The notes under the pieces are model-generated. The model did not search any database and was not told the origin of the DNA. It was given only the letters and a program-made list of their open reading frames with translations. A program made the position numbers and the translations under genes. From contig NW_027266266.1 of assembly GCF_022045235.1 (NCBI RefSeq), positions 1,674,001 to 1,738,000 of the forward strand: 64,000 bases of DNA, given 5' to 3'. Source of the stretch: Haliotis cracherodii (taxonomy: Eukaryota). The stretch's first letter is position 1, and each line of letters starts with the position of its first letter. Positions 19,420 through 57,082 of the stretch are shown in pieces.

Positions 19420-22400
19420 ATGACGATGCTGCATACAACGTTCATCCTCCTCCTCTGCCTGGAACTTGTCACAGGTGACTATAGTTTCAATCTTCTTTAT
19501 GAATTATCATAATGCGTGTGTTGAAGATGTTAACTATTAACCAGTAGTTGTGTTATTTGTAGCCACCTGTAGTTCACAACAACATACCTTACACTTCCAA
19601 CAAAGAACAATAGTGATGCCATAATATATTAGCACAATTCTTTTTTTAAATCTGTCGTAAACAGGTTTGAACTATTGAGGACACAATAAAATATTTCAAC
19701 CATGTTTGCACTTGTCTCGTAAATCAAGAAAGGTTATCAGTAGTGTTATGACCCAAAGGTTGTTATCTTCTTACGAACTTCTTATGAACTCGTGGGCTAT
19801 CTTAGGGGGATTGGGTTTGTTGTTTGACGCCACATTCAGCAATATTCAAGCTATATGGCGGCGGATCAGAAAAACCAGTGATTGATATCATGAACAACAA
19901 TCCATGTCTTCTGGGTATGATGGCAGGCACCAACAATGTGACGGGGCCTGACCACCCGATCATTTAGTTGCCTTTTTCGACCATCATAGGCTATGGAGGA
20001 CCAGGAATTGCCACAGGGGCAAACAATATGGAGATGATAAACTCAGAAAATGATATGGATTGTCGAAATTTAGCAAACGTTGAATAACTAACGAACGTGG
20101 TCTATAAAAACAAAATCACGATTCAAGTCATTTCACATTACAGATGTTATGTTGCTTTTATAGAAATTGATCTGAATATTGAACGTGTAAAATTTTGTCA
20201 AACGCATTCAATAACACATAAACTGTTGAGGAAGCGAGGTAAAATTACTTGAGGGGCATTCACACAAGTAGTAGCTATATCTTGTTGTATGTAATAAGTT
20301 ATACAAACTGCAGTTGTAAGCAATTTGGCGTTCACACAGCGATGAGTTGCAAACACCTCTTGTCTCGCGAGACATGATTTTTGTTACTTCTGAAACATAT
20401 TTGAAGTACTGAACATTGTAGGAGAATTATGGTCAAATGACACCAGGCCCACCTCAAACATGATGGATATGTGACATACCTCTTGTTCTAACTCATGGTG
20501 TAAAAACTTTATTGCAAAACTAAGAACGAATTAGAACAGAAATAGTGCTAAATGTTGTCGATGATTCTGTTTTGCATAAACATAACTTCAATGTAGCAAC
20601 TTTTAATTGCACATATATAAACATATTGCGTGATGTATGTTTGTATTTGACTGTTTTACTTAAACCGTGAGCAAACACAATATTGCCCTATGTCTGAAAT
20701 ACACAATGACTTATGTTAGCAATTTGTTATGATTTACTTTACTCATTCGATATGAAAAATAACTTGATGTAGAGAGATGTACTTATGTTCAATGAAGAAG
20801 GGCAAGACTTCGTTGAGCTATTGAAGCCCATTGTAACTCGGTTGTTGTATCTCACAATATATTTCGTATTTGTTTGATCATGAGTGATCAAACTTTTCCA
20901 GGCAAATATTGGTATTGAAATGGACACTACAAAATAAAGTTACATTATATATTCCCATATTCCTCCACAGCATTACAAATATTGGATAAAAAGAACAGAG
21001 TGCTAGTTTTTTTCGATGCAAGAGAAAACTTTGCTGTGAAAAATGTCTTAAATGGACAGATAAAAAGATTGGCTGTTCGTTGATATTGATTTGACAAGTC
21101 TCGCATCGTCAATGTTTATTGTTTAAATCAAATACTTTAAATTATGCAATCTTAACATACAAAGTGAGCATCTGTTCCTATAACTTTTGTGATTAAACTT
21201 GGTGCATCCTTTGAAGATACAAAACAATTGTGGCCAATTTCATCCAAGGAATATTAAAAACAAAATATTGTCACCGCTGTGCGCGATGTTGCGTCTGTCA
21301 CGGCGGTACAGGTCAAGATTCTTGCTCCATTTTTCCAATCATTGTGATCCATAAATATTATTGAATCCTCAATTCTTGGAATGATTTTTCACTCATGCAT
21401 ATTCTTCATAATCTCAGCCAATGCATGCACCACCAAGGAAAATGGATCGATTGTACTAGCAGAAAATGCAAAAGGGTGTTAAATGGGAGGTTTGAAACGT
21501 TTACATTTTCAAACGAGATTTCAGAACATGGGTTTGTTTTCATTTTATATTTATATTTCATCTGGGCCCTGTGTCAAAATCGCAATGCTTGCTTAGAAAG
21601 CGTACATGTGAATATCATGTGGTCTTGACACACATATAACTTGTTGCACGATGAAAGAGCATGCCTTATGTCTCATGCAACCAACAAGTAGCATACTATG
21701 GTGGCTGAGGGGGAACATCGTTTTGTCGCCCTCAATTACGGCCGCGAGAAAGCAATAACACGAGATGCGAAATGGGTACCAAGAGAGGAGAAAGCAATAT
21801 AGAGAGAAAGCAATAGAGAGATAGAACGAGAAAGTGAGAAACGATACGAGAAAGCGATAAAGAAAGAAAGCGATAAAGCAACAAGTAAGAAAGCAATGGA
21901 GCGAGAAAGCAATATAGAAAGAAACGATAAAGAAAGAAAGGGATGAAGCACCAAAGTGAGAAAGCGATAATGCTAGAAAATAATAGATAATTCTCATAAT
22001 TTTGTACATTAACGAGTTGTTTTGCTCCTTTTCAGGGCTTCATTCCTATAATTTTCAGCGCTGTTTTGACTTTTATGCCTCGAACTTTCAACATTTTGTG
22101 TTAGAGATAAATTTGTTAGATATTCATACAGAATGCTATCTCGTTTCGTTTGTATACAAGCACTGTTTACTTTCTTGTACTGTAGTTAATTCGAAAGATT
22201 CAAATGCACTATAACGGAAAAGTCTTTTGCTTTTACTTTATTTCGCTAAAACTCCTGAGAAAGTCCACGACTTATTTGCGAATTATTTGGAAACTTAATT
22301 GTCCCTTTTATAGGAGTTAGTAGTTTTATGCCTACCACCACAAACACACACCCTCCCCCTCTCACTTCCCCACCCCCGTCGTCGATAGAAGCGTTGTGTA

Positions 22401-25400
22401 GGATGATATTAGTTACATCTCTTCGTGTTTAGACTAACATGCTCTAAGATATTTGTGAATTTGTTTCGCTATTCATACTTAAAACTGAAACATTAAAAGA
22501 TACATTGAACTGGAACACATAATTAGTGAGTGAGTGAGTTGTGTAAAGCTTTTTCTAATTATTGGTCCAGTTATCAGTACACAAGTATATTTTTCACTGC
22601 ATTGGTTATGATTATGATAACAGAAACGTTCCAATTTTTAAACGGCGTGTCAGCTTAATGTGGAAGGAAAGCCCTAAATGATGCAGGTCTTAAATGTTTA
22701 CCACTTTGGTGAAACCCACGAGCACGGGTATGGTGCTGACAAACCTACAAACATAATCGGGGCGAACTGGGATTCGAACTCACAATCATTGATTTCTGGC
22801 GTGCCCAAGGGACACAACTCTGCACAGCGAAACGACTGGGCCACCCGTGCCCTCCGAACACATAATGAATTACATGATTTATACATTGAGAAATAAGTGT
22901 CAGTATTATCAGTCCACTGTTTGTATCGTTTGCATTGTTTTGACGGTCAACAGATTTGAATGTTACGCCGAATACGTGCTCGTCCGATTAAGAAATGACA
23001 ATTATATTGATAATGATGCATGTAAATTATGCAGACAAATGTTATACATGTAAACTGTTACAAAATACAAAATAGTGATCGATTAGATATGTCTATGTAT
23101 CTTAGGTCAGATATACGACGCTTGAGAGCGTCATTAACCAGTATATTCATTCCTTGGACAATAGAAATTGGATGTGTTGTAAATTTCATTTAAAAACCCT
23201 AAATTCTCACAATTTCCTTCAATCTTACTGTCTTCAGAAATTAAATTCAATGCTAATGTGCGTCTAAAATATAGTTCAACTGATGTTAAGTCGGATTGCC
23301 CGACATATTTGTGCTTATTTGTAAATATCTACCACAGTGAGTCAAACTGATAGACTAACAGACAGATGCACAAACAAAAACTATACTTAAAATATACATA
23401 CAATATAAGGATGACAGCTGATTTAACATATGTTATAGAAAATCATAGGTATGCACTTCATATTGTTATTAACGCTAACTGTGTGGCCACACTAATTTGG
23501 ATGCCTCTCCATATGTGTAGTGTATCCAAGTACACATATCAACTGTGATAACACCATTGTCACAGCGATGGGAGCGGTGAGGTAACCTAGTGGTTAAAGC
23601 ATTCGCTCCTTACACTGAAGACCCAAGTTCGATTCCCCACATGGGTACAATGTGTGAAGCTCTGCTGTCCCCACCATGATATTGCTGGAATATTGCTAAC
23701 AGCGGCACAAAACCATAACGTTATCAAATTACTATATACAAACTTTGTTTTGAGTTTTGTAGGTGCTTCCGTGAAGAAAAACAAAACTGATGTCATTACT
23801 CCGTGCTCGGCTTCCACGAACCGGCAGTTTTTGCATGAGCTTAGGTCATTGCTGAGCCTCTATCTGGGGAAGAAGGTTCTACAGCCAGTGACCTCCACTC
23901 CAATAAGTAGCAGCCCGGGTAAACACGCCTTTGTGTTTCTGTGTATGTTTAGTCTTGATGTCAGGAAGGTATATATAAGATGGTGATTTCAATACTTGAT
24001 CATTGCTTTCAATTCATGAAAATTATGTTGCCGACGTCTGCATTCAACCGTTTACACTATCTCATGTACTTTGAATAATACAGCAAAAAATGCGAAAAGT
24101 ATCAAATATGCATTTCTCTCCCCGCCATGTATTTATTTGTCTGTACTGGAATCTATGTTTTTTTCAGGTGGAGGAGCTGTGTTCACTCGGTGGGGAAAGA
24201 CAACATGTCCGTCAGGAAATGATGTCATATATAAAGGTGAAACATTTCGAGAGATACTTTTTTGGAGCGTCAAAAGAAAGTAAATAAGTTGTTTTTTTCC
24301 AAATGGGGTCATAAATGTGTTTAATTTTATGACATTTTAAAACTCGTCAGGGTGTCAGTTGAATCAAAGTAAAACTTATTAAATGGAAGAGTATGTCATC
24401 TCTTGAGTAGGGCTCTGTTTTGCCTTTCTTCGTTATAATATATAAAGGCCAATATCGAATATACCCCATTTCATGTTTCAACAATCATGAATGTACTTTA
24501 CACGAATTGTTTTCGATCTTTTTTTTTCGGTATATAAATCACTTATAAGAGATGCATTTTGGATAGATAAAGCTGCTGTGCATTCGATTCCCAATATAAT
24601 CTTGCAGGGTTAAATCTACTGGTAACCTAGTTCTACACTGGAGACACAGTATGTTTATCTCCATTCTTATATCAAAAGCAAACTCTTTTGTGTCAGCAAT
24701 GTTATTTATAAGGTGAGATGAGATGAGGTTTAACGTTGTATAGCGACGTGAATACACACATTCTGTGTGTGGCTGCTTGTGCGAGCTCTGACTGATGCCA
24801 GTTTCATAGTGTTAGCCTACTGAGATATCATGCTTCGTGCATACCTTACTTAGCGGTATATATTGCCGGCCAATCCTTGTTTTATCCCCTTTTAAGCTCG
24901 TTCTATGAGGATTTCGAAGAGCATCAGAGAAAGCAGAATATAAAGTTGATGAAATGACAATAAGGCTACGCTACATCAAACCATGCAGATTTCCAAAACA
25001 TCCATGATTAATCCTGATCATCACGCATACATATCTGATACAACTTCAGTAAACATGCCAAGCCCAAGGTAGCAGCCCAGCATTATGTTCCGTAAGCATG
25101 TCCACATTTCTGGTGTCAGCAATCTCTGCTGGCAAACATTTTACTATTATCTCGTGATATTTCTCGATATAAGGATCACGTGGCCACGTATATCACGCTG
25201 AGAAATGTATTCGCATTTGCTTACAAACGTATGTTGTACTTGGTTTACCTGTTGCTGTGATATTTTACATCATTTTATCCACATGAGATATCAACATACT
25301 TTGTACATGGTCTACATTCGCGGTTGCTGGTAGAAATGGACATGCGTACCCGCTTTGCGAACATCAATATTTTTCAGTTATCCATTTACATAATTTCACT

Positions 25401-26160
25401 ACTATTTTGCCTTTTACACCCAATTGAATCTGTTTCTGTGAACAATCGGAATTGAGTATTCTCGGGGGTTGACGTTTTATATTTGTAAAAGGGTAACCTT
25501 TCAGATTAAAAATGATAAATAGAATTCACCTCTTGTCTTGCCAAAGACTCGGAAAATTGATTAATTAAGACTTATCAATGCATTAACAATATGATGAGTA
25601 CAAGTATTCTCTAAATTATTTGGTTTCCAAGCAACTATTTGATTTGACTAAGACACAAGTAAATGCTAGTCCCTTTCAATCTCTCAGGTTATGCAGGAGG
25701 AAGCCATTACCAGGCCAAGGGTGGACCAGGGACAACTCTGTGCCTTCCTGACTCTCCGATCTACACCAAGCATACTACAGCAGGATCAGGCAGTACTCTC
25801 TATGGAACTGAGTATGAAGTTGAACATCCCTCTCTTCCACTACGAAACATGTTTCAACATGATGTACCTTGTGTGGTGTGCCGCAGTCGTCGAAAGAGGA
25901 GTGCTGTGATGGTTCCTGCCAGGAATGATTGCTTCCCTGAGTGGCATCTGGAATACAAGGGCTACCTCTTCGGGGGAGCTACTTCCGAAACAGGTTCAAG
26001 TGATTATGTGTGTGTAGATGAAGACCCAGAATCCATAAAGGGAGGCCATGCAAACCTAAACGGACATCTCCTGTACCTGGTCGAGTCCAAATGTGGCGCT
26101 CTGCCTTGTCCACCATATGTTGATGGCTGGAAGATGACCTGTGCTGTTTGTACAAAATAA
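19420..26160 (+). CDS. Paralog 1: secreted short-chain collagen C4-like (spongin/collagen IV NC1-related domain) protein, 250 aa, 4 exons
   Basis: Exons 19420-19474, 23763-23918, 24168-24236, 25688-26160; all GT-AG phase-1 introns; 753 nt in frame. Signal peptide MTMLHTTFILLLCLELVTG; family motifs GAVFTRWGKTTCP, YKGYAGGSHY, LCLP, YGTEYE, DVPCVVC, MVPARNDC, WHLEYKGYL, YVCVDEDPE, LYLVESKCGALPCPPY, TCAVCTK. An upstream ATG at 19411 is followed directly by TAG. Confidence 0.85.
19813..20016 (-). mobile_element. Degenerate SINE family C in intron 1 (also 37823-38015 and about 54360-54535)
   Basis: gttgtttgacgccacattcagcaatattc...cctgaccacccgatc...ttagttgcc. Confidence 0.6.
21745..21972 (+). repeat. 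Purine-rich degenerate tandem repeat (GAGAAAGCRATA) in intron 1 of paralog 1
   Basis: Repeated gaaagcaata/gaaagcgata; only the 3' part is retained in paralog 2 (38930-39015). Confidence 0.7.
22526..22850 (-). mobile_element. tRNA-derived SINE, family B
   Basis: Minus-strand B box GAGTTCGAATCCC, (ACTC)n tail; paralog at 39548-39865; internally deleted + strand copy at 50433-50558. Confidence 0.7.
23571..23720 (+). mobile_element. tRNA-derived SINE, family A (intron 1 of paralog 1)
   Basis: CCTAGTGGTTAAAGC...AGTTCGATTCCCCAC...GCTGGAATATTGCT. Confidence 0.85.
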
Positions 26161-29208: not shown

Positions 29209-29329
29209 AGGGTCTAAGTGATTCATAGCTTACCTCAGTCGGGATAATCGCCTACCCTAGGGGAAATTTGGGGTTTACGTCCCAATATTCGTCTGCCCAA
29301 AGCTGACGGCACTGCCATTGATGTGATCA

Positions 29330-29660
29330 TGTCCAACTGTCCCGACAGTGGTGCGCTCATGACCGACTGTCCCGACATTACTATGCTCATGCCCGACTGA
29401 CCTGACATTTGTGTGTTCATACCCGACAGACCTGTCATTTGTGTGTTCATACCCGACAGACCTGACATTGGTGTGTCATAACCGACTGCCCTGTCATTTG
29501 TATGTTCATACCCGACTGCCCTGACATTGATGTGTTCATACCCGACTGCCCTGACATTGGTGTGTTCATACCCGACTGCCCTGACATTGATGTGTTCATA
29601 CCCGACTGCCCTGACATTGATGTGTTCATACCCGACTGCCCTGTCATTGGTGTGTTCAAG
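29330..29660. repeat. 30-bp minisatellite variant (ATACCCGACTGCCCTGACATTGRTGTGTTC)
   Basis: Same family core gac..cc.tgacattggtgt..tcat. Confidence 0.9.
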
Positions 29661-30029
29661 CATGTACCCGAGAAAGTAGTGAAGTCAACATTATGTTTGT
29701 GACGTCATAATGACGTTAAGGTCACATTCAGTGACAATAGCGTCAGGCGTAAATGCATTGCTGTGTGAGTACACAAATACACAGAGAACTACCGAGGGAA
29801 GTATTGAAAAAAATACTTTTGAATTAGGTTGGAGTTTCAAAAGCCTAATGAACATTTTCTCTTTTTCAATTCGTAAATGTTTAAAATTGTTAAACAATTT
29901 ATAACATGAAAAGACACTGAAATGGCTTGCATTTATGCAACGTACATTTGGATCTCGAATTTACTGTCTCTGAACAGTCATGTGTGTTTTTAGCTGCATT
30001 CCAGTTTCCCCACATTAATACTCTCATCA

Positions 30030-31166
30030 TTAGTGTGTTTATGCCCGGACATTGATGCGCTCAATGCCCGACCGTCCTCTCACAGGTGTGTTCATGACTG
30101 ACTGTCGTGACACTGCAGTGCTCAAGTCCTGACATAAGTGTGCTAATGCCAGATTTCCTTGACATAAGTGTGCTCATGCGAGATAGCCCTGACATTGGCC
30201 AACGCATGACCAACTGACCTGACAATGGCGAACGCATGACCAACTGCCCTGACATTGGTGAAGGCATGACCAACTGCCCTGGCATTGATGAAGGCATGAC
30301 CAACTGCCCTGACATTGGTGAGCGCATGACCAACTGCCCTGACATTGGTGAGCGCATGACCAACTGCCCTGACATTTACGTGCCCATGACCAACTGTCCT
30401 AAAATTGGTGTACTCATGACCAACTGTCCTGACGTTGGTGTGCTTCTGGCCAACTGCCAGAAAAATATGGCGAGTTCAAGAACTGACATTAATGTGTTCA
30501 TGCCCGAATGCCCTAACACTGGTGTGTAATAATCGACTTCAACGACATCGGTGTATCATAACCGACTCCCCTGACATCGGTGTGTCATAACCGACTCCCC
30601 TGACATTAGTGTGTCATAGCCGACTCCCCTGACATCGGTGTGTCATAACCGACTCCCCTCACATCGGTGTGTCATAGCCGACTCCCCTGACATCTGTGTG
30701 TCATAGCCGACTTCCCTGACATCGGTGTGTCATAGCCGACTCCCCTGACATTGGTGCGTCATAACAGACTCCCCTGACATCGGTGTGCCATAACCAACTC
30801 CCCTGACATCGGTGTGTCATAACTGACTCCCCTGACATCGGTGTGCCATAACCGACTCCCCTGACATCGGTGTGTCATAACTGACTCCCCTGACATCGGT
30901 GTGCCATAACCGACTCCCCTGACATCGGTGTGTCATAACCGACTTCCCTGACATTAGTGTGTCATAGCCGACTCCCCTGACATTGATGTGTCATAACCGA
31001 CTCCCCTGACATCGGTGTGTCATAACCGACTCCCCTGACATTGGTGTGTCATAACCGACTTCCCTGACATTGATGTGTCATAACCTACTTCCCTGACATT
31101 GATGTGTCATAACCTACTTCCCTGACATTGATGTGTCATAACCTACTTCCCTGACATTGATGTGCC
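30030..31166. repeat. 30-bp variant array (30030-30530) followed by a 29-bp variant array (ATAACCGACTCCCCTGACATCGGTGTGTC, about 21 units)
   Basis: Direct periodicity visible. Confidence 0.92.
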
Positions 31167-32424: not shown

Positions 32425-33425
32425 CAACACTACTGACAACATGTAACAGGTCTTCTGTGTGTGTCTCCTACAACAATAGTGACAGCTTCATGTGTGTCTC
32501 TCAAAAACAATAGTGACAGCTTCATGTGTGTCTCTCAAAACAATACTTACAACTCCGTTTGTGTGTCTCCTACAATAACACTGACAACTCCTTGTGTGTC
32601 TCCTACAATAACACTGACAACTCCGTGTGTCTCTTCTACAATAACACTGACAACTCCGTGTGTCTCTCCTACAAAACACTGACAACTCCGTGTGTCTCTC
32701 CTACAACAACACTGACAACTCCGTGTGTCTCTCCTACAAAACACTGACAACTCCGTGTTTCTCTCCTACAATAACACTGACAACTCCTTGTGTGTCTCTT
32801 ACAATAACACTGACAACTCCGTGTGTGTGTCGTACAATAACACTGTCAACTCCGTGTGTGTCGTACAATACCACTTACAGCTCCGTGTGTGTCGTACAAT
32901 AACACTGACAACTCCGCGTGTGTCTCCTACAACAACACTGACAACTCCGTGTGTCTCTCCTACAATAACACTGACAACTCCGTGTGTCTCCCACAATAAC
33001 ACTGACAACTCCGTGTGTGTCTCTTACAATAACACTGACACACCGTGTGTGTCGTACAATACCACTGAAAGCTCCGTGTGTGTCGTACAGTAACACTGAC
33101 AACTCCGTGTGTTTCTCTAACAATAACACTGACAACTCCGTGTGTCTCCTACAATAACACTGTCAACTCCGTGTGTTTCTCTAACAATAACACTGACAAC
33201 TCCTTGTGTGTCTCCTACAATAACACTGACAGCTCCGTGTGTGTCCCCTACAATACCACTGACATCACCTTGTGTCTCCTACAATAACACAGACAAGACT
33301 GTGTGCGTCTCCTACAATAACACAGACACATATGTGTGTGTCTCCTACAATAACACTGGCAACTCTTTGTGTGTCTCCTACAATAATACTGACAAGTCCG
33401 TGTGTGTCTCCTACAATAACACACC
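32425..33425. repeat. 33-bp minisatellite
   Basis: Units acaataacactgacaactccgtgtgtgtctcct. Confidence 0.93.
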
Positions 33426-37379: not shown

Positions 37380-37412
37380 GCCTTCCAGCTCTACCTTCAC
37401 TGTCGGTGTGGA

Positions 37413-42631: not shown

Positions 42632-42972
42632 AACACTCCATATAGACCATACCATCTGTCAAATATGTACATTAACCCTGTCTTTCATACATCCGATAAA
42701 CACATTCAGTTTTCATAAGACTGCCAATATCCATTGTTTGGTTGTGTGTAAATGTCTCTCGCTTTCATGTGGTTCATTCACCTCTGCCATGTATTTGTAA
42801 AAGTGTTGAATCACGATTATTTTATGAATGAAAAAGTAGTTCCAGTGTGACAGAGGTCACGGTTATACGATTAAAAGGAACAAAACGAGGTTCACCTTGC
42901 ACGACAAACGTGTGTCGTACGGATTTAGTATCTTAAAACCTGTATCTTCATCACGTGTAAAATAAAGGGATT

Positions 42973-43109
42973 GACATCGTGAGCATCGTTTCACGCAATT
43001 GGGATAAGATGACATGCATCAACCAAGTCAAGGAGCCTGACCACCTGCTCCCGTTTGTCGCCCCTTACGACAAGCATGGAAGACCCATTCTACCCGGATC
43101 TTGACGGGT
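42973..43109 (-). mobile_element. SINE family C fragment
   Basis: Paralog of 291-448. Confidence 0.7.
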
Positions 43110-44344
43110 CTTTAAGTTTATGTGGGTGCATGTGGCACAAAAGGTAGCCTTTGGTTGCCTCATGTTGTAAGGAAAGACTGGCCACGTTGACCAGTCAGTT
43201 ACGTTATCATTGGCTGAAGGTCCTAGCTGCAAGTTATCGCCAATGATGAGCTTCTGATCAATATCATTACACATGCTATTTCTTTACACATGGTTTCTTA
43301 ATTGACAAAGGTCCAACATTGCAGCTTATCATCTAAATCAGTCAATCAAATAATGGTTTATTGAATGAAATGTCATCGGCCCATATACACGCAAGTTACA
43401 TCGACATGTCGTTATATTAACAAATACTGTAGTATACTGAGTATCAAGACAACAAACGACAGAAAAAAGCATGATGAAAGATACTTATAGCTGTAAGTTA
43501 TTTTCTGTTTTGACATCAGACAGGTTCAGTTTCTCAGCATGCTATAACACCATGTTACATTGATTCAACAAGTACCCCAAGTGACACTAAATGAAGTGTG
43601 TTCAATGTTCTCTTGCCCCAAATAAAGATCCATTCTAAATGTTTATGTGTGATCTTTTGTGACTCTAAATGACAAAACTACAGTTTGTTAACCAGTTTGT
43701 GTTAATAAAAACCTTTCTTAAATAGTTTGGATGTTAATTATATATCTTGTCGGTAGTTACAAACCTTTACAAAATCCTTTAACTGATGTGATATTTATTG
43801 TTTCGTAACACAAGGGACATAATGTACTCATGAAGCGCATTCAAACCTATTGATAGCTGCAAACTATGTGAGCATTAGAGAAATTCCTGGCTGAATCGAC
43901 AAAAGCACTGATTGGGTAGAAATTATTTTACGACGCTTTAGACCATAACCAAGACACATCTCAAGATGCAAACTGTGTGAGCATTGAAGAAATTCACTAT
44001 TGAATCCATAGAAGAACTAATTGGGCAAACGAGTTATTTTACGACGCTTTAGACAATACCCTATCCATGTCACTGTGGAAAATATAATAATTACGTAACA
44101 GAGCAAAACTATGAGTGGAAGTCACAGGTAGATTCAGTCATCAAATTCTCGAAAACAGTGATATTCCTGATGTGTTGGTAAAGTATGGCCTAGGTAAACA
44201 CACCCACCATTATCTGTGACCACGTGGAACTGCTTTGAGGGGCAGAGCGCTGTTGTTATCATTAACTTATTTCATCATTGATTTCTACTGTATTGGCTTG
44301 TACGTTCCTCGTCACCATGAATTCATACGACTACTATACAAAGT

Positions 44345-44535
44345 AGACTCACGAATCCAACGTCGGCTTTCTTCCAGCTGGAGAGGTACAGCTATGTTTA
44401 TGGTAGGGAAGACCAATTTCATTTTGTTCTTCCTTTGTATAAAATGTTTCACTCGGATGTCCCATTTACCGTCACAGGTGGAGCGTGTCCTGGTCCGTGC
44501 CAGGAGCGAGTGCTTTCCTGGGTATTATTTTGGAA
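44345..44535 (+). pseudogene. Degraded relic of exon 4 of an older C4-like paralog
   Basis: With frameshifts it reads YSYVYGREDQFHFVLPLYKMFHSDVP...RHRWS...VLVRARSECFPG, versus the intact YSHLYGTEY...PLHNMFQHDVP...RHRRSAVMVPARNECFPE. Nucleotide similarity is visible (cgtcacagg.ggag, ggtcc.tgccagga..gagtgctt.cctg). Confidence 0.75.
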
Positions 44536-44779
44536 CGGTGTCTCTGTGGTAAATGATGCACACAATAGATACTGTTCTTTTTACAGTGGGTGTCTGAACA
44601 CAGACATATATCATGAACACAGCTTGTAATACAAAAAGTCAGGTACAGAAGTTCACTGATGTTCAATATGGTGGGGTACTTGTTTGCTAAAATGGTCCCT
44701 CATAATAGAGTCACATATGTTGTGTCGTTTTTACTTAAAAGCAAGTAACGTACTCGATGATTCTATAATGAAGCGTCCC

Positions 44780-44972
44780 AGCCTTAAAGAAATGGGTCCA
44801 ATTATAATGGTTCTGTTTATTAGTGATCTAAGCCTAATAGACAAGAGCCCTATTGTAATCGGTTTGTTTATTAGATATCCAAGCCCAATAGGCAAGAGCC
44901 TTATTGTAATCATTCTGTTTATTAGTGATCTAAGCCCAATAGGCAAGAGGCCTATTGTAATCGTTGTGGTTA
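44780..44972 (+). repeat. 51-bp tandem repeat (about 4 units), paralog of 7300-7545
   Basis: Same unit; reduced to a single copy at about 60705-60740. Confidence 0.85.
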
Positions 44973-46717
44973 TCACTTATTTCTATTTATTATGTATTAT
45001 TCCGCAGATTGTTTTGTACAAGAGATAACTCAACAACCCATCATCAGCATCTGGACATCATATGACGCAGATTACACAAAGATCCCAAGACTCTTGGCCC
45101 AACGTCCAATAGCAGACAATTCCAAAATAATTAACTAAAAGCAACTAAATCAGAAACCAATATCCTATTAGAGAAAACGTATTATTTCTGTTAAAGAGGG
45201 GAGTGACAAACTAGATTCATATAGCTGGAATTACTATGAACTTCGTACATTATTCACCAAGAGCCATATAACTTTTAATCTAACTGATTGTTCTTGAGGG
45301 ATGCGTTCCTTTGGTCACATGTATTCCGAATAAATAAGTGATGTACTTAAATCTAGCTTTGCAATTAACTGAGCTAAACTTACAATACTTTCGGTTGAAA
45401 TGTTCTCGTCAGGCAGCCTAGTTTGAAATAATCAAAACAATAGGTGCATTTGGGGTTTTTTTCCTAAATCGAGATAGCACCACGGGACTTCAGATATAAG
45501 GATTCAATGCTGTAAGAATGTATTTTCTATTTCCGGAAGTTATACAATTCGAACACTAATAGTTTTCTTGTAAAACGAGCTACAAGCTTGGGACTTTATT
45601 ACGTGTGTTATTAAACCTCAAATGACATAATTCAAAGACAGAAAGTACTAATACTTTTGTTATAAAGTGAGCTAGAACTATTTGACTTTATTATTTAAGA
45701 TGTTGAGTTTGCATACGATTTTCTTTCGGAACCAGGAGTGATTATTTCTCTAAGCAACTAGAGGAGGACCACATGGCCACATGTATCTCACTAAGAATAG
45801 CATCTACATGAGCTTACAGAATAGTTTGTACGTGGTCCAACTGATATACACACGTGGTCGCTGTCTGATTTTACGTCGCATCAAGAGAGTTTGGCAAGTA
45901 CATTGTTTTAGAATCTAAGGAAATATAAAAGTCAATGCCAGAGAGGAATCAGTCTCGATTAACTTCCGAAACCAATTTCCATTGGGCGTAAGTTAAGAAT
46001 TAAATAAAGGGATAACTGGAAATCTCTTCTCTGCGGAGCTGTGCAAGTATCAACATGTTACATCATTACCGAGGGCTGATCAATGTCCACCCAAAGTCAT
46101 TTTGCTGGTATTTTCAAGCAACACATAACCCAAATTGGACATTTAAGTTGTAGCTCAACAAGAATGGAAAAATATATTTTAAGATCTATGCACAAAGAAT
46201 CAGAGTGCCTAAAAATACATGCGCAAATATATGACCAGACGGATTACTTCAACTCGTCAACTTTCGCTACATGTTACAGCCATTTCAAGCAGCTTGAACC
46301 TTTACTTCAACATTTCACAACTTCAGATACATTCGAGCATGCCGTTTCTTCGAATCTTTCAAAGAGCGTCAAAAGTTGTTTGATCAAGGTCAAAAGATTT
46401 AAGGCCTTAGTAAAGCTTTCAGAACGTTTTAGGGTGCAGATGTGAAGGGCAGTTCTAAATTTGATTTTGGTGATTTTACTATGCTTCAGTTTAACGGAAC
46501 AATGCTGATCCGTTCACTCAGAAGGCATAGACAGCTTACATCGTGGCTCAAATATATACGACACATCTATTTTCCTATTCCAGAGACATTCCTGCTGAAA
46601 GCATCATCAATTCTCTATTGAATTACATTATGTCAGTGTAATCCTTTATTCATCCTGTAGTAGTGATAGTCAATATGTAAAGACGATTTCATCCGGCACC
46701 TGATATGTTGACGCACG

Positions 46718-47208
46718 TCGGTTTTGTAGCTACCACAATAACCACCGTCACATCGCGCATTTAGACGTTGCTATCACATGTCCAAGGAGGGATATGTGAT
46801 TTGTAGCTTCCACAATAGCCACCCTCACAAAGCGAAGTAATTCGTTGTTATCACACGTCCAAGGAGGTATATGTGATTTGTAGCTTCCACAATAGCCACC
46901 ACCACATCACCCAGTAACTCGTTGTTATCACACGTCCAAAGAGGTATATGTGATTTGTAGCTTCCACAATAGCCACTGTCACATCACGCAGTAACTCGTT
47001 GCCTCACGCCCAAGGGGGTATATGTGATTTGTAGCTACTTCAATAACCACCGTCACATCGTGCAATATGTCTTTGTTATCACACGTCCAAGGGGGTATAT
47101 GTGATTTGTAACTTCCACAATTAGCCACCGTCACATCACGCAGTAAGTCGTTGTTATCACACGTCCAAGGGGACATATGTGATTTGCCGCTTCTGTAATG
47201 AGCACTTT
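46718..47208 (+). repeat. 77-bp tandem repeat (about 6.5 units)
   Basis: atatgtgat recurs at 46792, 46869, 46946, 47020, 47097, 47175. Confidence 0.9.
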
Positions 47209-47249
47209 AAGCACACAGTCTGGGTTTTCACCATCTAACACCACCTACT

Positions 47250-48570
47250 CTGGTGTGTCCATCACCGACTGCCCTGTCATAGGTGTGCTCATGTCCAGTT
47301 GCCATGACATGTGTTTACTCATGACTGACTGCCATGGCATTGGTGTACTCATGCCTGGCCGCCATGGCATTGGTGTACTCATGCCTGGCCGCCATGGCAT
47401 TGGTGTACTCATGCCTGGCCGCCATGACATTGGTGTACTCATGCCTGGCCGCCATGGCATTGGTGTACTCATGCCTGGCCGCCATGACATTGGTGTACTC
47501 ATGCCTGGCCGCCATGACATTGGTGTACTCATGCCTGGCCGCCATGACATTGGTGTACTCATGCCTGGCCGCCATGACATTGGTGTACTCATGCCTGGCC
47601 GCCATGACATTGGTGTACTCATGCCTGGCCGCCATGACATTGGTGTACTCATGCCTGGCCGCCATGACATTGGTGTGCTAATGACAGCCATGACATTGGT
47701 GTACTCATGCCTGGCCGCCATGACATTGTTGTGCTCATGCCTGGCCGTCATGACATTGTTGTGCTAATGACTGCCATGACATTGTTGTGCTAATGACTGC
47801 CATGACATTGGTGTGCTCACGACTGACTACCTAGACATTGATGTGTTCATGACTGACCGCCATGACATTTGTGTGCTCATGACTGACTACCTAGACATTT
47901 GTGTGATCATGACTGACTGCCTGTCATTGGTGTGCTCATGCCCGGTCGCCATGACATTGGTGTACTAATGACTGCCATGACATTGATGTGTTCATGACTG
48001 ACTACCTGGACATTCATGTGTTCTTGACTGACTACATGTACCTAGACATTGATGTGTTCATGACTGACTGCCATGACATTGGTGTACTAATGACTGCCAT
48101 GACATTGATGTGTTCATGACTGACTACCTAGACATTGATGTGTTCATGACTGACTACATGTACCTAGACATTGATGTGTTCATGACTGACTGCCATGACA
48201 TTGGTGTATTAATGACTGCCATGACATTGATGTGCTCATGACTGACTACCTGGACATTGATGTGTTCATGACTGACTGCCATGACATTGGTGTACTAATG
48301 ACTGCCATGACATTGGTGTACTAATGACTGCCATGACATTGATGTGTTCATGACTGACTACATGTACCTAGACATTGATGTGTTCATGACTGACTACCTA
48401 GACATTGATGTGTTCATGACTGACTACATGTACCTAGACATTGATGTGTTCATGACTGACTACATGTACCTAGACATTGATGTGTTTGATGATATTGGCT
48501 AACTGACTAACTGACTGAGATGACATGTGTGTGCTCATGAGTGGCTGCCATGACATTGGTTTACTCATGA
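47250..48570. repeat. 30-bp minisatellite variant (ATGCCTGGCCGCCATGACATTGGTGTACTC) followed by mixed 26/30/36-bp units
   Basis: Direct periodicity visible. Confidence 0.93.
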
Positions 48571-48571
48571 C

Positions 48572-50330
48572 CGACAATACTGACAACTCCATGTCTCAAA
48601 CAACAATACTGACAACTCCGTGAGTCTCCTACACCAATTACTGACAACTCCGAGTGTGTTTCAAACAACACTACGGACAACACGATGTATATCCTACAAC
48701 ACTACTGACAACTCCGTGTCTATCTCCTACAACACTACTGACAACTCTGTGTGTGTCCCCTACAACAATACTTTCAACTCCGTGTGTGTGTCCTACAACA
48801 ATACTGACAACTCCGTGTGTGTCTCCTACAACAATACTTTCAACTCCGTGTGTGTGTCCTACAACAATACTGACAACACCGTGTGTGTCTCCTACAACAA
48901 TACCGACATCTCCGTTTGTCTCCTACGACAATACTGACAACTCCGTGTGTGTCTCCTACAACAATACCGACATCTCCGTTTGTCTCCTACAACAATACTG
49001 ACAACTCCGTGTGTGTCTCCTACAACAATACCGACATCTCCGTTTGTCTCCTATGACAATACTGACAACTCCGTGTGTGTCTCTTACAACAATATTAAAA
49101 ACTCCGTGTGTGACTCCCACAAGAATACATACAACTCCGTTCGTCTCATAGAACAGTACAGTCTAAATCGTGTGTGTCTCCTACAGCGATACTTACATCT
49201 GCGTGTGTGTCTCCTGCAACAACACTAACAGCTCCTTGTCTGTCTCCTACAACAACACTGACAGCTCCGTGTGTGTCCCCTACAACAATAATGACAACTC
49301 CTTGTGTCTCCTACAACAACACTGACAGCTCCGTGTGTGTCCCCTACAACAATAATGACAACTCCTTGTGTCTCCTACAACAACACTGACAGCTCCTTGT
49401 CTGTCTCCTACTACAACACTAACAGCTCCTTGTCTGTCTCCTACAACAACACTAACAGCTCCTTGTCTGTCTCCTACAACAACACTAACAGCTCCTTGTC
49501 TGTCTCCTACAACAACACTAACAGCTCCTTGTCTGTCTCCTACAACAACACTAACAGCTCCTTGTCTGTCTCCTACAACAACACTAACAGCTCCTTGTCT
49601 GTCTCCTACAACAACACTAACAGCTCCTTGTCTGTCTCCTACAACAACACTAACAGCTCTTTGTCTGTCTCCTTCAACAACACTAACAGCTCCTTGTCTG
49701 TCTCCTACAACAACACTGACAGCTCCGTGTGTGTCCCCTACAACAACACTAACAGCTCCTTGTCTGTCTCCTACAACAACACTAACAGCTCCTTGTCTGT
49801 CTCCTACAACAACACTAACAGCTCCTTGTCTGTCTCCTACAACAACACTAACAGCTCCTTGTCTGTCTCCTACAACAACACTAACAGCTCCTTGTCTGTC
49901 TCCTACAACAACAATGACAGCTCCGTGTGTGTCCCCTACAACCAAAATGACAACTCCTTGTGTCTCCTACAACAATAATGACATCTCCGTGTGTGTCTCC
50001 TACAACAATAATAACAACTCTGTGTGTCCAAAAACAATGCTGATAGCTCCGTGTGTGTCTCCTACAACAATATTGATAGTTCCGTGTGTGTCTCCTGCAA
50101 CAATACTGATAGCTCCGCGTGTGTCTCCTACAACAGTATTGATAGTTCCGTGTGTGTCTCCTACAACAATACTGATAGCTCCGTGTGTGTCTCCTACAAC
50201 AATACTGATAGCTCTGTGTGTGTCTCCTACAACAATACTGACAATTCCGTTCGTGTCTCCTACAACAATACTGATAGTTCCGTGTGTGTCTCCTACACCA
50301 ATACTGACAATTCCGTGTCTATACAACTAC
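48572..50330. repeat. 33-bp minisatellite with a homogenized core (ACAACAACACTAACAGCTCCTTGTCTGTCTCCT, about 49380-49910)
   Basis: Direct periodicity visible. Confidence 0.94.
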
Positions 50331-50432
50331 AGTACTCACAATTACGTTCGTGCGCTACACTACGACCACATTGCTGACAAGTATGTATACAACTCACCTT
50401 CGACTCCCCCCACTCACTGAAATAGGAGGCAC

Positions 50433-50558
50433 TGGTGGCCCAGTCGTGCTCATGGGTTTCATCAAAGTGGTAAACGCCTGAGACCTGCATCACTTCGGGC
50501 TTAACTCTCACAGCTGACACGCCGTTAAATAGCTGCGTCAAACACAACTCACTCACTA
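50433..50558 (+). mobile_element. SINE family B, internally deleted
   Basis: Reverse complement matches parts of 22640-22850; (ACTC)n tail. Confidence 0.65.
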
Positions 50559-51772
50559 CTCTCGGAGAATGTCTTTGATGACATTACCATCGCACAGAAC
50601 ATATTTTTAAGAAATAAAACATATCCAGGCATCGTCTGTTGTCTACTAGGTGATGCTTAGGACCCGACAGAGTTATAGTGAAATCACTACAACGAAGCCA
50701 ACAGTTCATGCCTATACATGATAATTATATTTTGATTCTACGAATCCCTGGACTGCCTTGTAACTGATGTATTAGACTACACATTTTATTATGGCTATTA
50801 TTATTATGACTATCATGATTATTCGACAATCAGGTCTATTAGCTGATAGCTTTAGCCCCAACCTTTAGTTTTCTCAGACACTGTCGATAATTCGTCTTGT
50901 ATATCAAATAGCATTAAAATAAACTTAACACAAACAAAACACAAGGGAACCAGAATGCACAGTATTCATGACTGTAATAGTACATTGTTGACATGACAGG
51001 TGCGTTACACAGTTGAAGCGTTCGGAATATTGATGATATATAACTGAACATGTGTTGCCTACACAAATAGCGAACCTCCGGGTGAGATTCAACATTGTAT
51101 CACCTTTTATGTTTTACTGTTGAGTCGTGGGACTTGCAACATTAAAATATATTGGATGTTTGACTTGAGCAGTAATAGTTGGACATGTTCATGCAGGCTG
51201 ATAGAGAATGATGTATAAATCAATATGGTTCGTGTGGATGTTTGTGACGCTGGCAGTCAACTATCATCAAATGTGTTTTTTCTGTGTTGTTGTACTTTGT
51301 AACAGATGAGATTTAGCTTTAAGAAACCTTACATGTATTTCTGTTATTGCTGACACAATATCTACCAACATGGCATGTTTGTGTAATTGCTTGCATGAAA
51401 CTCACGATCAGAAAAGACCAGTTGATAGTGCTTAGTAACGGATGAAGCTTAGCTTTATAACTTCCGTTATTGCTGACTCGGAGATTGTGTAATTGTTTAG
51501 TTGAGGCTCAGAAAAGATGAAAAGCCCTGAAAATGATAAACAATTTTTGTGAAATATAAAGCACATTTTTCAAATAACTCACAATACCAATGTTCGAAGG
51601 TATAAATAAGCTATTCTAAGGAGAATGTCACATCTTCCTTATCAAATGTCGTCTTACACTCCTGGCATGGTCCGCCTTACATTTTGCACGTGGGCATTCT
51701 ACAGTGTAATAGAAACACTTAGTCTATACACAGACAGTCTCACATACAGATGATATGTGATCTTGTAAGACA

Positions 51773-51929
51773 GGGGCGATGGGGTAGTTTAGTGGCTAAA
51801 GCGTTCGGGTAGTTTAGTGGCTAAAGCGTTCGCTCGCCACGCCGAAGACCAGGGTTCCATCTCCCACATTAGTATTCGTGTCCCTCGCCGTGTAATTGCT
51901 AAAATCGGCATAAAACAATACTCACTCAT
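51773..51929 (+). mobile_element. tRNA-derived SINE, family A, with a duplicated 25-bp A-box segment
   Basis: (gggtagtttagtggctaaagcgttc)x2; a further 3' fragment at 52127-52204. Confidence 0.8.
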
Positions 51930-53916
51930 TGACAATACTGCATGGAAAAAGCAAGCCTTGCAATAAACGTCATCCAATGGGTAACAGGTACAATGTTCAT
52001 TTTGACAGCATGATAAGCATCTGTGTACATACTGGCATTCTGGTAAACGGAATTTATGTTCGGATTGGCAAAGTAAAATGAATTTGGCCAAGGTGTTATA
52101 TCAATAACCATCATCTTTAGATCTATGTGTGAAGCCGATTTCCCGTTATATTGCTGGAATATTGCTAAAAGCGGCGGAAAACCATACTCACTCACTCACT
52201 CACTTTAGATCTATGCATACAGATTCAGTGACAAAACACTCTCCACAAGACTATAAGACAAGAGGAATGACTTCAACTTTCCTGCTTTTTGTGTCTGCAT
52301 TTCACAACTTTTGAGGTATAATATATCGCGAACACCTGGTATCATCACTATTTGATAGCGATTCATAAATGCAAACATACATATGCCGATTTCTTATGAA
52401 CATGGAAACGGTTTTCTTTCTTTTATTATCATGTGAACAATTGACTTGCACTTACATAAGTTTGTGACGGAAGCCCCCGATGGGGCAGGATACGCTAACA
52501 CTCAGTCTCATCAAAATTTGATAGCTATTCATAAACACATGCCCATAACAGCCGGAATCGTACCTTCAACTCTGATTTTAACAGCGACTTCTTGTGGCTA
52601 TGGAAAGGGACATTTCCCTTTTAGTAATTCCAATTTAGTATTCACGAGTGTGGCGTTAGGCCTAAAACAAAAAAAACCTACATTGTTTTAGGAAACGTTT
52701 ATGAGTAGCGGGACATGCTCACCTTTTTTCGCGAATCGAAATCATCCATTCGTTAATTAGAATTTTCACCACTATTTTGCCTTTCAATCCCAATGGACTT
52801 TGGTCAGATAATCGCGACTCGTTATTCTCAAGCGTTGACGTTTTATATGCGTTAAGGGATAACTTTCAACATGAATCTTTCACTTGTGGGAAGTATTGAA
52901 ATAGATTACAAACAACCTCTTGTTTTGTACCGTGTCCGTGTCTGCATAAACAACACAAATTGTTATGTATGTTTATGGACGCTCTTATCATACATTTTCG
53001 TTCACTTGATAATGATATGCTAGTATTTCACACAGAAAATAAACTTGGTTGATTTATTGAACTGTCAATAAGAAGACTACTCCTTTCCGTTCTTGTGTTT
53101 AGTTTACCGTTAACAAATTACGTTATCCAAAACATAACCATCTGTCTCCCAAAAAACTGACTAACGGTAATGTTAGCTAAATAAGCCAGCATGTTGCATA
53201 CTCTATTAGACAAGAGTTTCCGAATGTGCATTTATCCCATTACCATAAGGATTCCAACGATACCTTCAGCTGATATATTGTTCGGACTTTTCATAATGAG
53301 TTATTTAGTTTTGTTATTGAGACATGCAATTGGCACATGGAAAAAAACAATAACATTTGAAGTCATTGTTGTATAGCATAACGTCGTCACAAAGAGCATG
53401 AGCATGTGTATCATGTAGTGTACTACAGCACTGCAGCTGTAATTACACCATAGCATGATGTGTTTCCTGTCATGGTCTCATCTTCTGATACTCATTCATC
53501 AATAATTAAACACAGATAATATCAACATTTCATCATGCATCAGTTACACATCTTTATTTAACATACAAAACAAAAACGAATGGCAGTGTTTTCCACATAA
53601 AATAAAATGAAGGACCAAACATTTAATACATGGTATGGATATTTTCGGAGGTATAAACATAAGTTATTTAGCCTCAGCTCGTACGGGTTGGATAAAATGC
53701 ATTTTCAACTGATACCTCTGAGTGATTGAGTGGGAATGGATTTTCGCCCTTTTCAGCTATATTCCAACACCATCACAGCTGGAGACACCCCGTACGGGGC
53801 GACTGATGATTAGGTCACACTTTACACGAGTGGGATATTTATCTTTTAAACAACTGTGATGTTTGGTAACATTTGTTCAGAAACATTCGAGTAGGTGTTA
53901 GGTCCTGGTAGATGAG

Positions 53917-53923
53917 TATATAT
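53917..53923 (+). promoter_or_regulatory. Putative TATA box of paralog 3
   Basis: TATATAT 40 nt upstream of ATG 53957 in the conserved promoter block. Confidence 0.55.
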
Positions 53924-53956
53924 GTCTCCCCTCTCTACCTTCACTGTCGATGTGGA

Positions 53957-56900
53957 ATGAAGACAATGATGATGCTGCATACAACGTTCATTCTCCTCCT
54001 CAGCCTGGGACTTGGTGCAGGTAACTATAGTTTCAATTATCTTTACAAATGATCATAATGTGTGTATTGATGTTAACTTCTTAGCGAGTAGTTGTAAGCA
54101 GGATGGGTGTGTTATTTGTAGCTTCGAGCTTTTCGTCTTGCAGTCCTCAACAACAAACCTTGCACTTCAAACATTACTTATAAGCAAGTTGTACTCAGTT
54201 TTCAACTATTGAGGTCACTATTCAACTGTCCACCCAGTTTGGTACTTGTTTTATAAATCAGACACGTTATCTCTGGCGTTCGGAACTAGATATATAGTTT
54301 TTATTCATCTGCACACTCTCTATGAAGTTGAACCCATGGGCTATTTGAGGGACATTTTGTCCGTTGTTGAACGCCACATTCAACAATATTCCAGTTGTAT
54401 GATGGCGGTCGATAAAATATCGAGTGTGGACACACGACTGAACCACGATCAACGGCGCAAGGGTACGATAACACGCAATCAACCAAGTTGACCACTGACC
54501 ACTCCTTTCATTCAGTCGCCACTTACAACTATCTGAGGTTGCCTGGACCTGGAAGTTCTAAAGGAGCTGTCCATATGGAGATGACCAACACAGACAAGTA
54601 TATGGACACGTTAAATAACTAGCTGAATGGGACATTCTTATCTTTGTTAAGATTCAAGTGTTCCGTTGTTTTAAAAAAATGGATATGTTTTGCAGAAGAT
54701 ATATTGTACCCATGTTTCTAGCATTCATTCATGAAAATAATGAAAAGGGAAAACTTAAAAACACATGACGTGGCTACTTTGCTTTGTGTTTTGGAGGTGC
54801 TTCCGTGAAGAAAAACAAGACTGATGTCATCACTCCGTGCTCGGCTTCCCCGAACAGGCAGTTCTTGCATGAGCTGAGGTCGCTGCTAAGCCTCTATCTG
54901 GGGGAGAAGGTTCCTGAGCCAGTGACCTCCACTCCACAAAGTAGGAACTCGGGTAATCATGCCTTTGTGTTTCTGTGTATGTTTAGTCTTTGATGGCCGA
55001 AGGTATATATCAGATGGTGATTTTAATACTCGATGATTGCTTTCAATTCTTGAAAATTATGTTGCCGACGTCTGTATTCAACCGTTTACACTATCTCATG
55101 TACTTTGAATAATACAGCAAAAACTGCAAAAAGTATCAAACTGCATGTCTCTCCCCACCATGTATTTATTTGTCTGTACTGGAATCTATGTTTTTTCAGG
55201 TGGAGGAGCTGTGTTCACTCGGTGGGGAAAGACAACATGTCCAACAGGAAATGATGTCATGTATAAAGGTAAAGCATTTCGAGAGATACTTTTTCGGAGC
55301 GTCAAAAGTTAGTAAATAGTTTTGGTTTTTTTTCAAAAGCGGGTCATAGCTGGGTTTTAAACATTGTCAGGGTGTCAGTTGAATCAAAGGAAACTTATTA
55401 AATGGTAGAATATCTCATCTCTTCAGTAAGGCTCTGCTTTGCCTTCCTTCGTTAGGACATATAAAATTAACTTGAAAAGGACAATATCAAATATACTCCA
55501 TTTCATGTATGAACAATCATGAATGTACTGTTTTCGATCAATATTTATCGGTATATAAATCACATATAAGATATGTATTTTGGATAGCTAACGCTGCTGT
55601 GCATTCGATTCCAAATTTAATCTTGCTCTACACTGGAAACACAGTATGTTTATCTCCATTCTTATATCAAAAGCAAACTCTTTGGCGTCAGCAATGTTAT
55701 TTATTAGGTGAGATCAGGGGAGGTTTCACGTTGTGTTCAAGATGATTGCACTTGTATAGCGACATGAAGACACACATTCTGTGTGTGGCTGCTTGTGTGA
55801 GTTCTGACTGATGCCAGTTGCATATTGTTAGCCTACTGAGATACCATGCTTCATGCATACCTCACTTAGACGCATATAATGCCGGCCAGTACTTGTTTTA
55901 TCCCCTTTTAAGCTCATTCTATGAAGTTTTCGAAGAGCATCAGAGAAAGCAGAATGTAAAGTTGATGAAATGACAATAAGGTTACGCTACATCAAACCAT
56001 GCATATTTCCAAAACATCCATGATTAATACTGATCATCACGCATGCATATCTGATACTTCAGTAAACATGCAATGCCCAAGGTAATAGCCCAGCATTATG
56101 TTCCGGAAGCATGTCCACATTTCTGGTTTCAGCACTCTCTGCTGGCAAACATTTTCCCATTGTCTCGTGATATTTTTCGTTCGGAGGATCACGTGGCCAC
56201 GTGTATCACGCTGAGAATAATATTTGCATTTGCTTATAAACGTATGTTGTACTTGGTTTAAATGATGTACACTCGCCTGTTGCTGTGAGATTTTACATAA
56301 TTTTTCCATATGAGATATCAACGTACTTTGTACATGGTCTACATTCGCGGTTGCTGGTAGAAATGGACATGCGTACCCTCTTTGCGAACATCAATACTTT
56401 TCAGTTATCCATTTACATAATTTCAGATGAAAAATGATAAATAGAATTCACCTCTTGCCTTGCCAAAGACTCGGCAAATTGATTAACTTAGACTTATCAA
56501 TGCATTAACAATATGTTGAGCACAAATATTCTCTAAATTATTTGGTTTTCAGGCAACTATTTGATTTGACTAAAACACAAGTAAATGCTTGTCCCTTTCA
56601 ATCTCCCAGGTTATGCAGGAGGAAGCCATTACCAGGCCAAGGGTGGACCAGGGACAACTCTGTGCCTTCCTGACTCTCCTATCTACGCAAGGCATACTAC
56701 AGCAGACACTTACAGTCATCTCTATGGGACTGAGTATCAAACTGATCATGAAACTGGACCTCTGCACAACATGTTTCAACACGATGTCCCTTGTGTGGTG
56801 TGCCGCAGTCGTCACAGGAGGAGTGCTGTCATGGTCCCTGCCAGGAATGAGTGCTTCCCTGAGTGGCATCTGGAATACAAGGGCTACCTCTTCGGGGGTT

Positions 56901-57082
56901 CCACTGAACACACAGGTTCAAGTGATTACGTGTGTGTAGATGAAGATCCAGAATCCATAAATGGAGGCCATGCAAACAAAAACGGACATCTCCTGTACCT
57001 GGTCGAGTCTATCTGTGGTGCCCTGCCATGTCCACCATATGTTAATGGATGGGAGATGTCCTGTGCTGTTTGTACAAAATAA
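53957..57082 (+). CDS. Paralog 3: secreted short-chain collagen C4-like protein, 253 aa, 4 exons
   Basis: Exons 53957-54020, 54797-54952, 55200-55268, 56610-57082; phase-1 introns; 762 nt in frame. MKTMMMLHTTFILLLSLGLGAG...; the exon 2 acceptor is GAG rather than TAG. Confidence 0.87.

Follow-up and report, generated by a model that had tools for sequence, protein, structure and literature searches.

The stretch analysed here (the window) comprises 64,000 nucleotides of the genome of the abalone Haliotis cracherodii (contig NW_027266266.1, positions 1,674,001 to 1,738,000) and contains three complete genes, A, B and C, each with a head of the spongin-type NC1 family. They belong to a real and ordinary-looking birth-and-death array of this known family, and what is noteworthy about it is that old loop versions are shuffled on a fixed scaffold predicted to be trimeric and that many of its variable sites recur in an independent second expansion. 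The genes lie on the forward strand and comprise four exons each, with AG/GT borders, a single terminal stop and no internal stops: gene A (19420-26160; 250 aa; exons 19420-19474, 23763-23918, 24168-24236 and 25688-26160), gene B (37422-42631; 248 aa; exons 37422-37476, 40809-40958, 41203-41271 and 42159-42631) and gene C (53966-57082; 250 aa; exons 53966-54020, 54797-54952, 55200-55268 and 56610-57082). Exon 4 of gene B is identical to the corresponding part of database protein P0001, and that of gene C to P0043. Exon 1 codes for a leader that is hydrophobic on inspection by eye and likely a signal peptide, exon 2 for a short helix and a Ser/Thr/Pro linker, and exons 3 and 4 for the head of ~180 residues. 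A first-pass annotation had described three intact paralogues without Gly-X-Y repeats and had quoted a series of short exon-4 patches; the models just given agree with it, all quoted patches are found in frame on the forward strand, and the longest Gly-X-Y run in the three genes is two triplets, so that the abalone proteins are relatives of spongin short-chain collagens and not collagens themselves.

Gene structure and organization of the array

The intron positions of gene C could be compared with four sequencing runs that we guessed to be RNA, with four organism labels from four studies, placed at ≥82% likeness. Contigs from all four join across the three predicted introns, and intron 3 is bridged with GT..AG ends in each. 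This confirms the gene model for homologues, not expression of copies A, B and C themselves; as to the expression expected of the paralogues, spliced transcripts are therefore found in relatives, the bridging contigs carrying other organism labels. Just 3' of gene C, window positions 57185-57266 hold a short dispersed repeat, present in very many contigs of all four runs. The acceptor of exon 2 in gene C is weak (GAG). The same GAG acceptor occurs at exon 2 in five copies, including window 54797-54952 and those at NW_027266266.1:1622051, 1670878 and 1750261, and three of the five have a stop or frameshift in this exon; the stalk encoded by exon 2 seems to be decaying in one lineage. Exon 2 is left out, with the frame kept, in three of the copies as modelled in the database (201 aa), so the stalk is apparently dispensable in some copies.

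Searching the host assembly (1.18 Gb, 80 contigs) with exon 4 yielded 25 matches among 30 candidates, so the family count in the genome is at least 25, a lower bound. Fifteen fall between 1.35 and 1.80 Mb of NW_027266266.1, where we examined 464 of the 484 kb from 1.334 to 1.818 Mb: ten on the forward strand in tandem from 1.62 Mb, four on the reverse strand and one apart. The repeat unit measures 14-22 kb and takes in spacer DNA as well as minisatellites of 77, 30 and 33 bp, which recur in each unit in constant order and in very different copy numbers, and which may promote unequal crossing-over. In the window these minisatellites occupy 9581-12238, 13801-15602, 29305-31165, 32457-33422, 46723-50318 and 63326-63869, and the spacer between genes B and C (42632-53965), which carries all three types, is co-duplicated with the genes. 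Damage is spread over several copies: one frameshift and one stop in exon 4; one stop, two 2-bp deletions and one partial copy of exon 2; and, elsewhere, one altered start and one altered donor. Fifteen copies in 0.45 Mb, several of them damaged, fit the tandem birth-and-death proposed at first pass.

Ten further, more distant exon-4 matches lie outside the cluster. Small clusters of members 39-70% identical to exon 4 occur on the same contig at 6.22 Mb and 6.48-6.50 Mb and on another (C6) at 8.92-9.04 Mb and 13.67-13.73 Mb; the one at 6.22 Mb falls in a group with members from H. asinina and H. rubra. Within the window, both strands of the 30-bp array at 9618-12230 can be read for ~850 codons without a stop; this array and the other long open reading frames (ORFs) at 13729-15727, 47183-47767 and 48584-50420 were rejected as genes, the 30- and 33-bp minisatellites being open in several frames. 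Segment 44200-44760, considered as a dispersed repeat, is unit DNA, because its nine matches all fall inside the cluster. Broken pieces of a long terminal repeat (LTR) retrotransposon lie at 3274-7155, with gag-like, protease-like, reverse transcriptase and RNase H ORFs in several frames (Pfam confirms the reverse transcriptase and RNase H); from the domain order we read it as a Ty3/gypsy-type element.

Loop variation, mosaicism and selection in exon 4

Among 14 array copies (the frameshifted one was excluded), all nine exon-4 cysteines are invariant, which bears out the near-invariant cysteine scaffold noted earlier. Amino-acid entropy is clustered along exon 4 (lag-1 autocorrelation 0.29, p=0.0004), and the 20 most variable sites all lie outside strands. 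The earlier claim that differences concentrate in the quoted patches stands in that these 34 codons, 22% of exon 4, carry 57% of the entropy; it is incomplete in that further variable sites lie outside them (149, 150, 174, 209, 211 and 228 in gene A numbering), and the ANLNG/ANKNG patch, while present, amounts to one codon only, in gene A. We delimited four variable loops in gene A, all on the forward strand: loop 1 (25708-25716, codons 101-103), loop 2 (25765-25797, codons 120-130), loop 3 (25816-25857, codons 137-150), which exists in two old versions, the PSLPLR and TGPLH types, both also found in H. rufescens, and loop 4 (25978-25995, codons 191-196).

The array copies are mosaics of swapped loop blocks, as had been supposed at first pass. 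The pairwise homoplasy index (PHI) test gave p=0.0002 on 106 informative sites and p=0.0012 on third positions, and local trees differ. Compared with its closest duplicate, upstream of the window at NW_027266266.1:1653201, gene C has a swapped tract at 56678-56788 (forward strand, codons 117-153) in which 34 of 111 bases differ, versus 6 of 357 in the rest of exon 4 (p=8e-18). Gene B, in turn, shares a tract with gene C at 42227-42286 (forward strand, codons 117-136) without a single difference in 60 bases, despite introns that are ~20% different between the two genes. Between gene A and its duplicate, intron 1 shows 18 differences in 4270 bases but exon 4 shows 47 in 468. Moreover, H. rufescens shares the loop versions in other combinations. 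Thus, the swapped tracts and the versions shared with H. rufescens point to a few old loop versions being reshuffled.

Variable sites recur in a separate expansion. The 21 distinct H. asinina sequences make up a clade of their own (support 100/99), and comparison of their variability with that of the array gave ten shared sites above threshold (Fisher p=2e-5) and a rho of 0.43; given family-wide entropy, a partial rho of 0.31 was left (p=8e-5), and rho was 0.40 within the 77 family-variable sites.

The first-pass annotation had proposed a diversified recognition family, the reading that we favour below, and several results weigh against it. Family-wide entropy predicts array entropy (rho 0.59), and the variable sites are for the most part positions that are variable throughout the family. 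In any tandem array, moreover, gene conversion is to be expected. Counting gave a ratio of non-synonymous to synonymous differences (pN/pS) of 1.02 inside the patches and 0.21 outside. Codon models, in our own implementation on 13 copies and 179 codons (two copies with a broken exon 4 were excluded and one of those used is without exon 3), gave on one tree an M1a/M2a likelihood-ratio test (LRT) statistic of 23.0, with an omega of 3.5 on 5.6% of sites. When double-hit changes were allowed, this fell to 4.3 (M8a/M8 6.3, p=0.012), and with five local trees, whose breakpoints were chosen by eye from the recombination scan, to 0.6 (M8a/M8 1.3), leaving ~30% of sites at an omega of 1 and no class above. 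Neutral mosaic simulations analysed on one tree produced false positives in 7 of 12 cases, with a maximum LRT of 12.1, none reaching the real value of 23, whereas the local-tree test recovered planted selection in 14 of 16 simulations, none of which scored as low as the real 0.8. At sites fixed beforehand, omega was 1.04 for the quoted patches (p=0.78) and 1.29 and 1.42 for sites picked from H. asinina (p=0.14 and 0.17). The signal of positive selection obtained from one tree was therefore rejected as unreliable. Synonymous tree length was 2.06 and 1.85 for segment 114-160 versus 0.83 and 1.05 (72-113, 161-200), and 1.78 for 201-250; separate tree lengths per segment, as used with the local trees, can soak up part of a loop-concentrated signal. 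The scaffold is under strong purifying selection, and the loops evolve at about neutral rates (dN/dS about 1.0-1.4, not significantly above 1). A dN/dS above 1, set beforehand as the key test of diversification, is thus not supported once recombination is modelled, with local trees or at fixed sites; weak positive selection may still act on the loops.

Kinship and predicted structure of the head

The family is the known spongin-type NC1 head family. Searches of Pfam and PDB sequences with the head gave no meaningful match, the only hit being the Drosophila Viking NC1 at E 1.8. Homologues range from sponges to molluscs, and several, including several H. rufescens members, are labelled 'short-chain collagen C4-like'. 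A profile search gathered 4658 clusters at 50% identity. Among 189 fetched homologues, some of whose records are fragments, 22 have at least six Gly-X-Y triplets and 167 are collagen-less, so the collagen-less form is the family norm; many such homologues combine a leader with a coiled-coil-like stalk. The 'collagen' label is accordingly misleading here, as had been argued, and a lack of collagen does not set this locus apart. The head matches the collagen-bearing sponge member P0024 with an hhalign probability of 100 (E 1.8e-67, 39% identity), although P0024 was itself a row of the alignment used, and directly by phmmer at E 7e-32 (42%). Ten cysteines, one in exon 3 and nine in exon 4, are invariant and the HSQ motif is absent. 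This corresponds to the spongin-type head, described as having ten cysteines (seven common to collagen IV and three of its own) and no HSQ (PMC5395295). Spongin heads are missed by Pfam NC1 models (PMC12749355). Spongins have been called animal-restricted (bioRxiv 2021.10.08.463732), by which collagen-bearing forms are meant; the spongin-type head alone occurs in protists. The abalone proteins thus share with spongin short-chain collagens a homologous head, ten cysteines, the missing HSQ and the lack of a Pfam C4 match, but differ from them in having no collagen, in a short helical stalk that is lost in some copies and in the recent loop swapping within the array.

The AlphaFold2 model of the head is confident (predicted local distance difference test, pLDDT, of 88-98 by block), and its top PDB structure matches are all collagen IV NC1 domains (Foldseek E 1.3e-5; VIA Z 7.7, root-mean-square deviation 4.6, 149 aligned residues). 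Together with the profile match to P0024, these matches uphold the kinship with spongin short-chain collagen and collagen IV NC1 stated at first pass. The two halves of the head match each other (probability 97%), pointing to a two-fold internal repeat in which loop 1 pairs with loop 4, loop 2 with segment 209-218 and loop 3 with segment 226-231. Collagen IV NC1 (Pfam C4) is thus the best structural match and has in common with the abalone head the two-fold internal repeat and the predicted trimer; unlike it, the abalone head is shorter, is only 14-21% identical, and lacks HSQ, a triple helix and a Pfam C4 match, and the segments that serve assembly in collagen IV correspond to variable segments in the abalone head. 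True collagen IV genes are located elsewhere in the abalone genome; collagen IV NC1 exons with near-identical translations were seen on two contigs (C54:95898-99313 and C67:27465973-27469181), possibly a duplicated haplotype in the assembly.

Structure prediction with three copies of residues 45-268 of P0043 gave a homotrimer score of 0.92, compared with 0.02 for the best of three controls, with ≥77% of contacts agreeing between runs and pLDDT ≥80. Of 30 solved same-chain pairs, 21 reached the mark used for a trimer, and of 23 single chains none did; for eukaryotes it was reached by 17 of 29 (animals, 7 of 16), and by none of 30 single chains. Because only 1 of 7 without an older solved relative reached it, the pass may reflect memory of NC1 trimers. 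A hint of a trimer that is independent of structure prediction comes from head counts in other proteins: 20 of the 39 long homologues with at least two full heads have three, six or nine, and 14 of the 18 two-headed ones carry an extra partial head. Likeness between the heads of one chain can be as low as 35-49%. The head is thus predicted to form a homotrimer with a conserved core: at the best-defined contacts, 19 of 24 exon-4 residues have a single state across the 14 copies (or differ only by the stop of a broken copy), and five vary. Within the predicted interface, one face has loop 2 and the face opposite it has loops 3 and 4 together with residue 228, so that neighbouring chains would bring their loops together at the seams. 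When aligned, weakly, to abalone collagen IV NC1, loop 1 pairs with the GNE loop, loop 2 with both the hairpin and the ASRND segment, and loop 3 with the Met-bearing loop that comes next. In collagen IV NC1 itself, the face between trimers involves residues E40, R76, D78 and E175, and the hairpin and VR3 have been put forward as drivers of side-to-side assembly (PMC4878091); the match of those residue numbers to abalone motifs is our own count from the alignment.

A possible recognition role and its alternatives

We consider these to be likely secreted binding proteins for microbes or glycans at body surfaces, and hold such a recognition role to be plausible, with the balance about even, on the basis of the following arguments. 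New gene copies would arise by unequal crossing-over, and gene conversion would deal a small set of old loop versions into new combinations, so that diversity would come from recombination and not from fast point substitution. With a two-fold repeat in each head, a trimer would offer six sets of three loops; these loops would correspond to the NC1 hairpin and to the docking face between collagen IV trimers, and, there being no collagen tail, that face would be left open to ligands from outside. Three heads stand behind a MACPF domain in Ancoracysta twista protein P0093 and three behind a weak MACPF match in P0102; nine are found in Choanoeca perplexa protein P0087, and six, ahead of TNFR-Cys and SH2 domains, in P0088. 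Such multiples of three heads, borne by a protist pore-former and a receptor-like protein, speak for binding. A leader, a stalk and a trimeric head make up the plan of C1qDC, FReD and collectins. Mollusc C1qDC, FReD/ficolin and collectin proteins resemble the abalone family in this plan, which is predicted for the abalone proteins, in lineage-specific tandem expansion and in variable loops, and differ in that the abalone head is unrelated to theirs and in that the dN/dS of its loops is not significantly above 1. Of the transcripts confined to gill in Mytilus, one of the top ones is a 'short-chain collagen C4', listed together with perlucin-like, C1qDC, apextrin-like and fucolectin (PMC4581086). 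A family member has also been recorded as a gill protein spot (PMC5302490).

Cysteine-rich beta modules behind MACPF are also found in ApeC/apextrin and apicomplexan APC-beta proteins, to which there were weak leads (Atlas 0.81, Foldseek E 0.15). Kinship with ApeC was not supported: there is no Pfam match, and hhalign gave 0.6% against a shallow profile of five near-identical abalone ApeC domains. These five, single-exon domains are clustered at 5.87-5.90 Mb of contig C1. A single-head protein with a bacterial-looking leader (P0233, P0040) was noted in metagenomes and on one contig of an alphaproteobacterial metagenome-assembled genome (L088:3001-3284), where the best segment is at 78% and contamination is possible; a scan of prokaryotes with P0233 gave two loci among 54 candidates, one of them convincing.

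On the opposite side of the balance, beside the selection tests, stands the predicted interface, which contains 12 of the 20 most variable sites against a background of 102 of 156 (p=0.62), neither enriched nor depleted, so that it lends no support to a free binding surface. The mapping of loops to NC1 comes from an alignment with a global probability of 7% and a local one of 61.5%. In the literature the family is treated as a matrix, adhesive or shell protein (PMC5395295, PMC12549020), in some cases from its label alone (PMC6626399, PMC12040131, bioRxiv 2025.07.05.662347), and the passages of PMC13093298, PMC11270918, PMC5867623 and PMC8533556 hold no functional information on it. Our literature search, which covered sources other than subscription journals and supplements, found nothing on loop diversification, selection or ligand binding in the family, nor on these abalone genes.

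The alternative that survives best, and that we regard as a possible if second-ranking explanation, is that these are bulk secreted matrix, mucus or shell proteins, whose array raises dosage, whose loops are unconstrained and whose mosaic structure is a by-product of conversion between neighbours. The codon models accord with this, in that ~30% of sites sit at an omega of 1 with none above under local trees and the fixed-site omega is near 1, as do the correlation of array with family-wide variability and the presence of several damaged copies; spongin-type proteins have, moreover, been described as matrix components (PMC5395295, PMC12549020), and the family has been linked to shell formation in oyster (PMC12040131). 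It accounts less readily for a common subset of sites that varies in two separate expansions beyond family-wide variability (the partial rho given above), for a single-tree LRT above all 12 neutral simulations, for a loop segment (114-160) with about twice the synonymous tree length of 72-113 and 161-200, as if old versions had been kept, and for the lack of a collagen tail with which to build a network.

A different objection concerns the array itself, which could in part be an assembly artefact. A block of ~78 kb is repeated (1640000-1701000 versus 1718000-1778000 of NW_027266266.1, identity 91-99.5%) and may be a recent duplication or two haplotypes; if two haplotypes were placed in tandem, some paralogue pairs would be alleles and the copy number would fall, while the mosaic pattern would remain. 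The collinear blocks at an offset of 77-79.5 kb, and one pair that differs at only 3 of 468 exon-4 bases, speak for this. We nonetheless think it unlikely, given that block identity is uneven along its length, that genes A, B and C differ by 9-20% in introns, and that the family is also multi-copy in H. rufescens (one 2.99-Mb contig holds eight or more named loci or records) and in H. asinina (>20 members). More improbable still is that the loops form an assembly code deciding which paralogues trimerise or which trimers dock, as in collagen IV NC1, where the hairpin, VR3, R76, D78, E40 and E175 take part in assembly (PMC4878091): loops 1-3 do align, weakly, to those segments of abalone collagen IV and 12 of the 20 most variable sites do lie in the predicted interface, but the swapping of loops on one face is independent of that on the opposing face, and a matched code would not survive this; there is, besides, hardly any variation at the core contacts, and other organisms have chains in which heads no more than 35-49% alike are grouped by threes.

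Returning to the recognition role, a bolder form of it, to which we give rather little credence, is that the head is an ancient and so far unrecognised trimeric target-binding module, older than animals, that aims protist pore-formers, and from which the abalone has made a combinatorial recognition repertoire. Gene conversion would shuffle loop cassettes among tandem copies, and mixed trimers from ~10 genes would yield hundreds of distinct binding surfaces, since the core of the trimer is conserved and loops from adjacent chains would come together at the seams. If this were true, thousands of invertebrate 'short-chain collagen C4-like' genes would be lectin-like receptors and not collagens.

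The head family is large, has no Pfam model or solved member, and routinely passes for 'collagen' in work on mollusc transcriptomes. Gene C with its duplicate, and gene B with gene C, are natural loop-swap pairs that make the function of the loops directly testable. If the loops are neutral, the locus is no more than an ordinary tandem array, and it illustrates clearly how recombination can mimic positive selection; if the head binds ligands, many transcriptome results would need re-reading and molluscs would gain another diversified recognition family.

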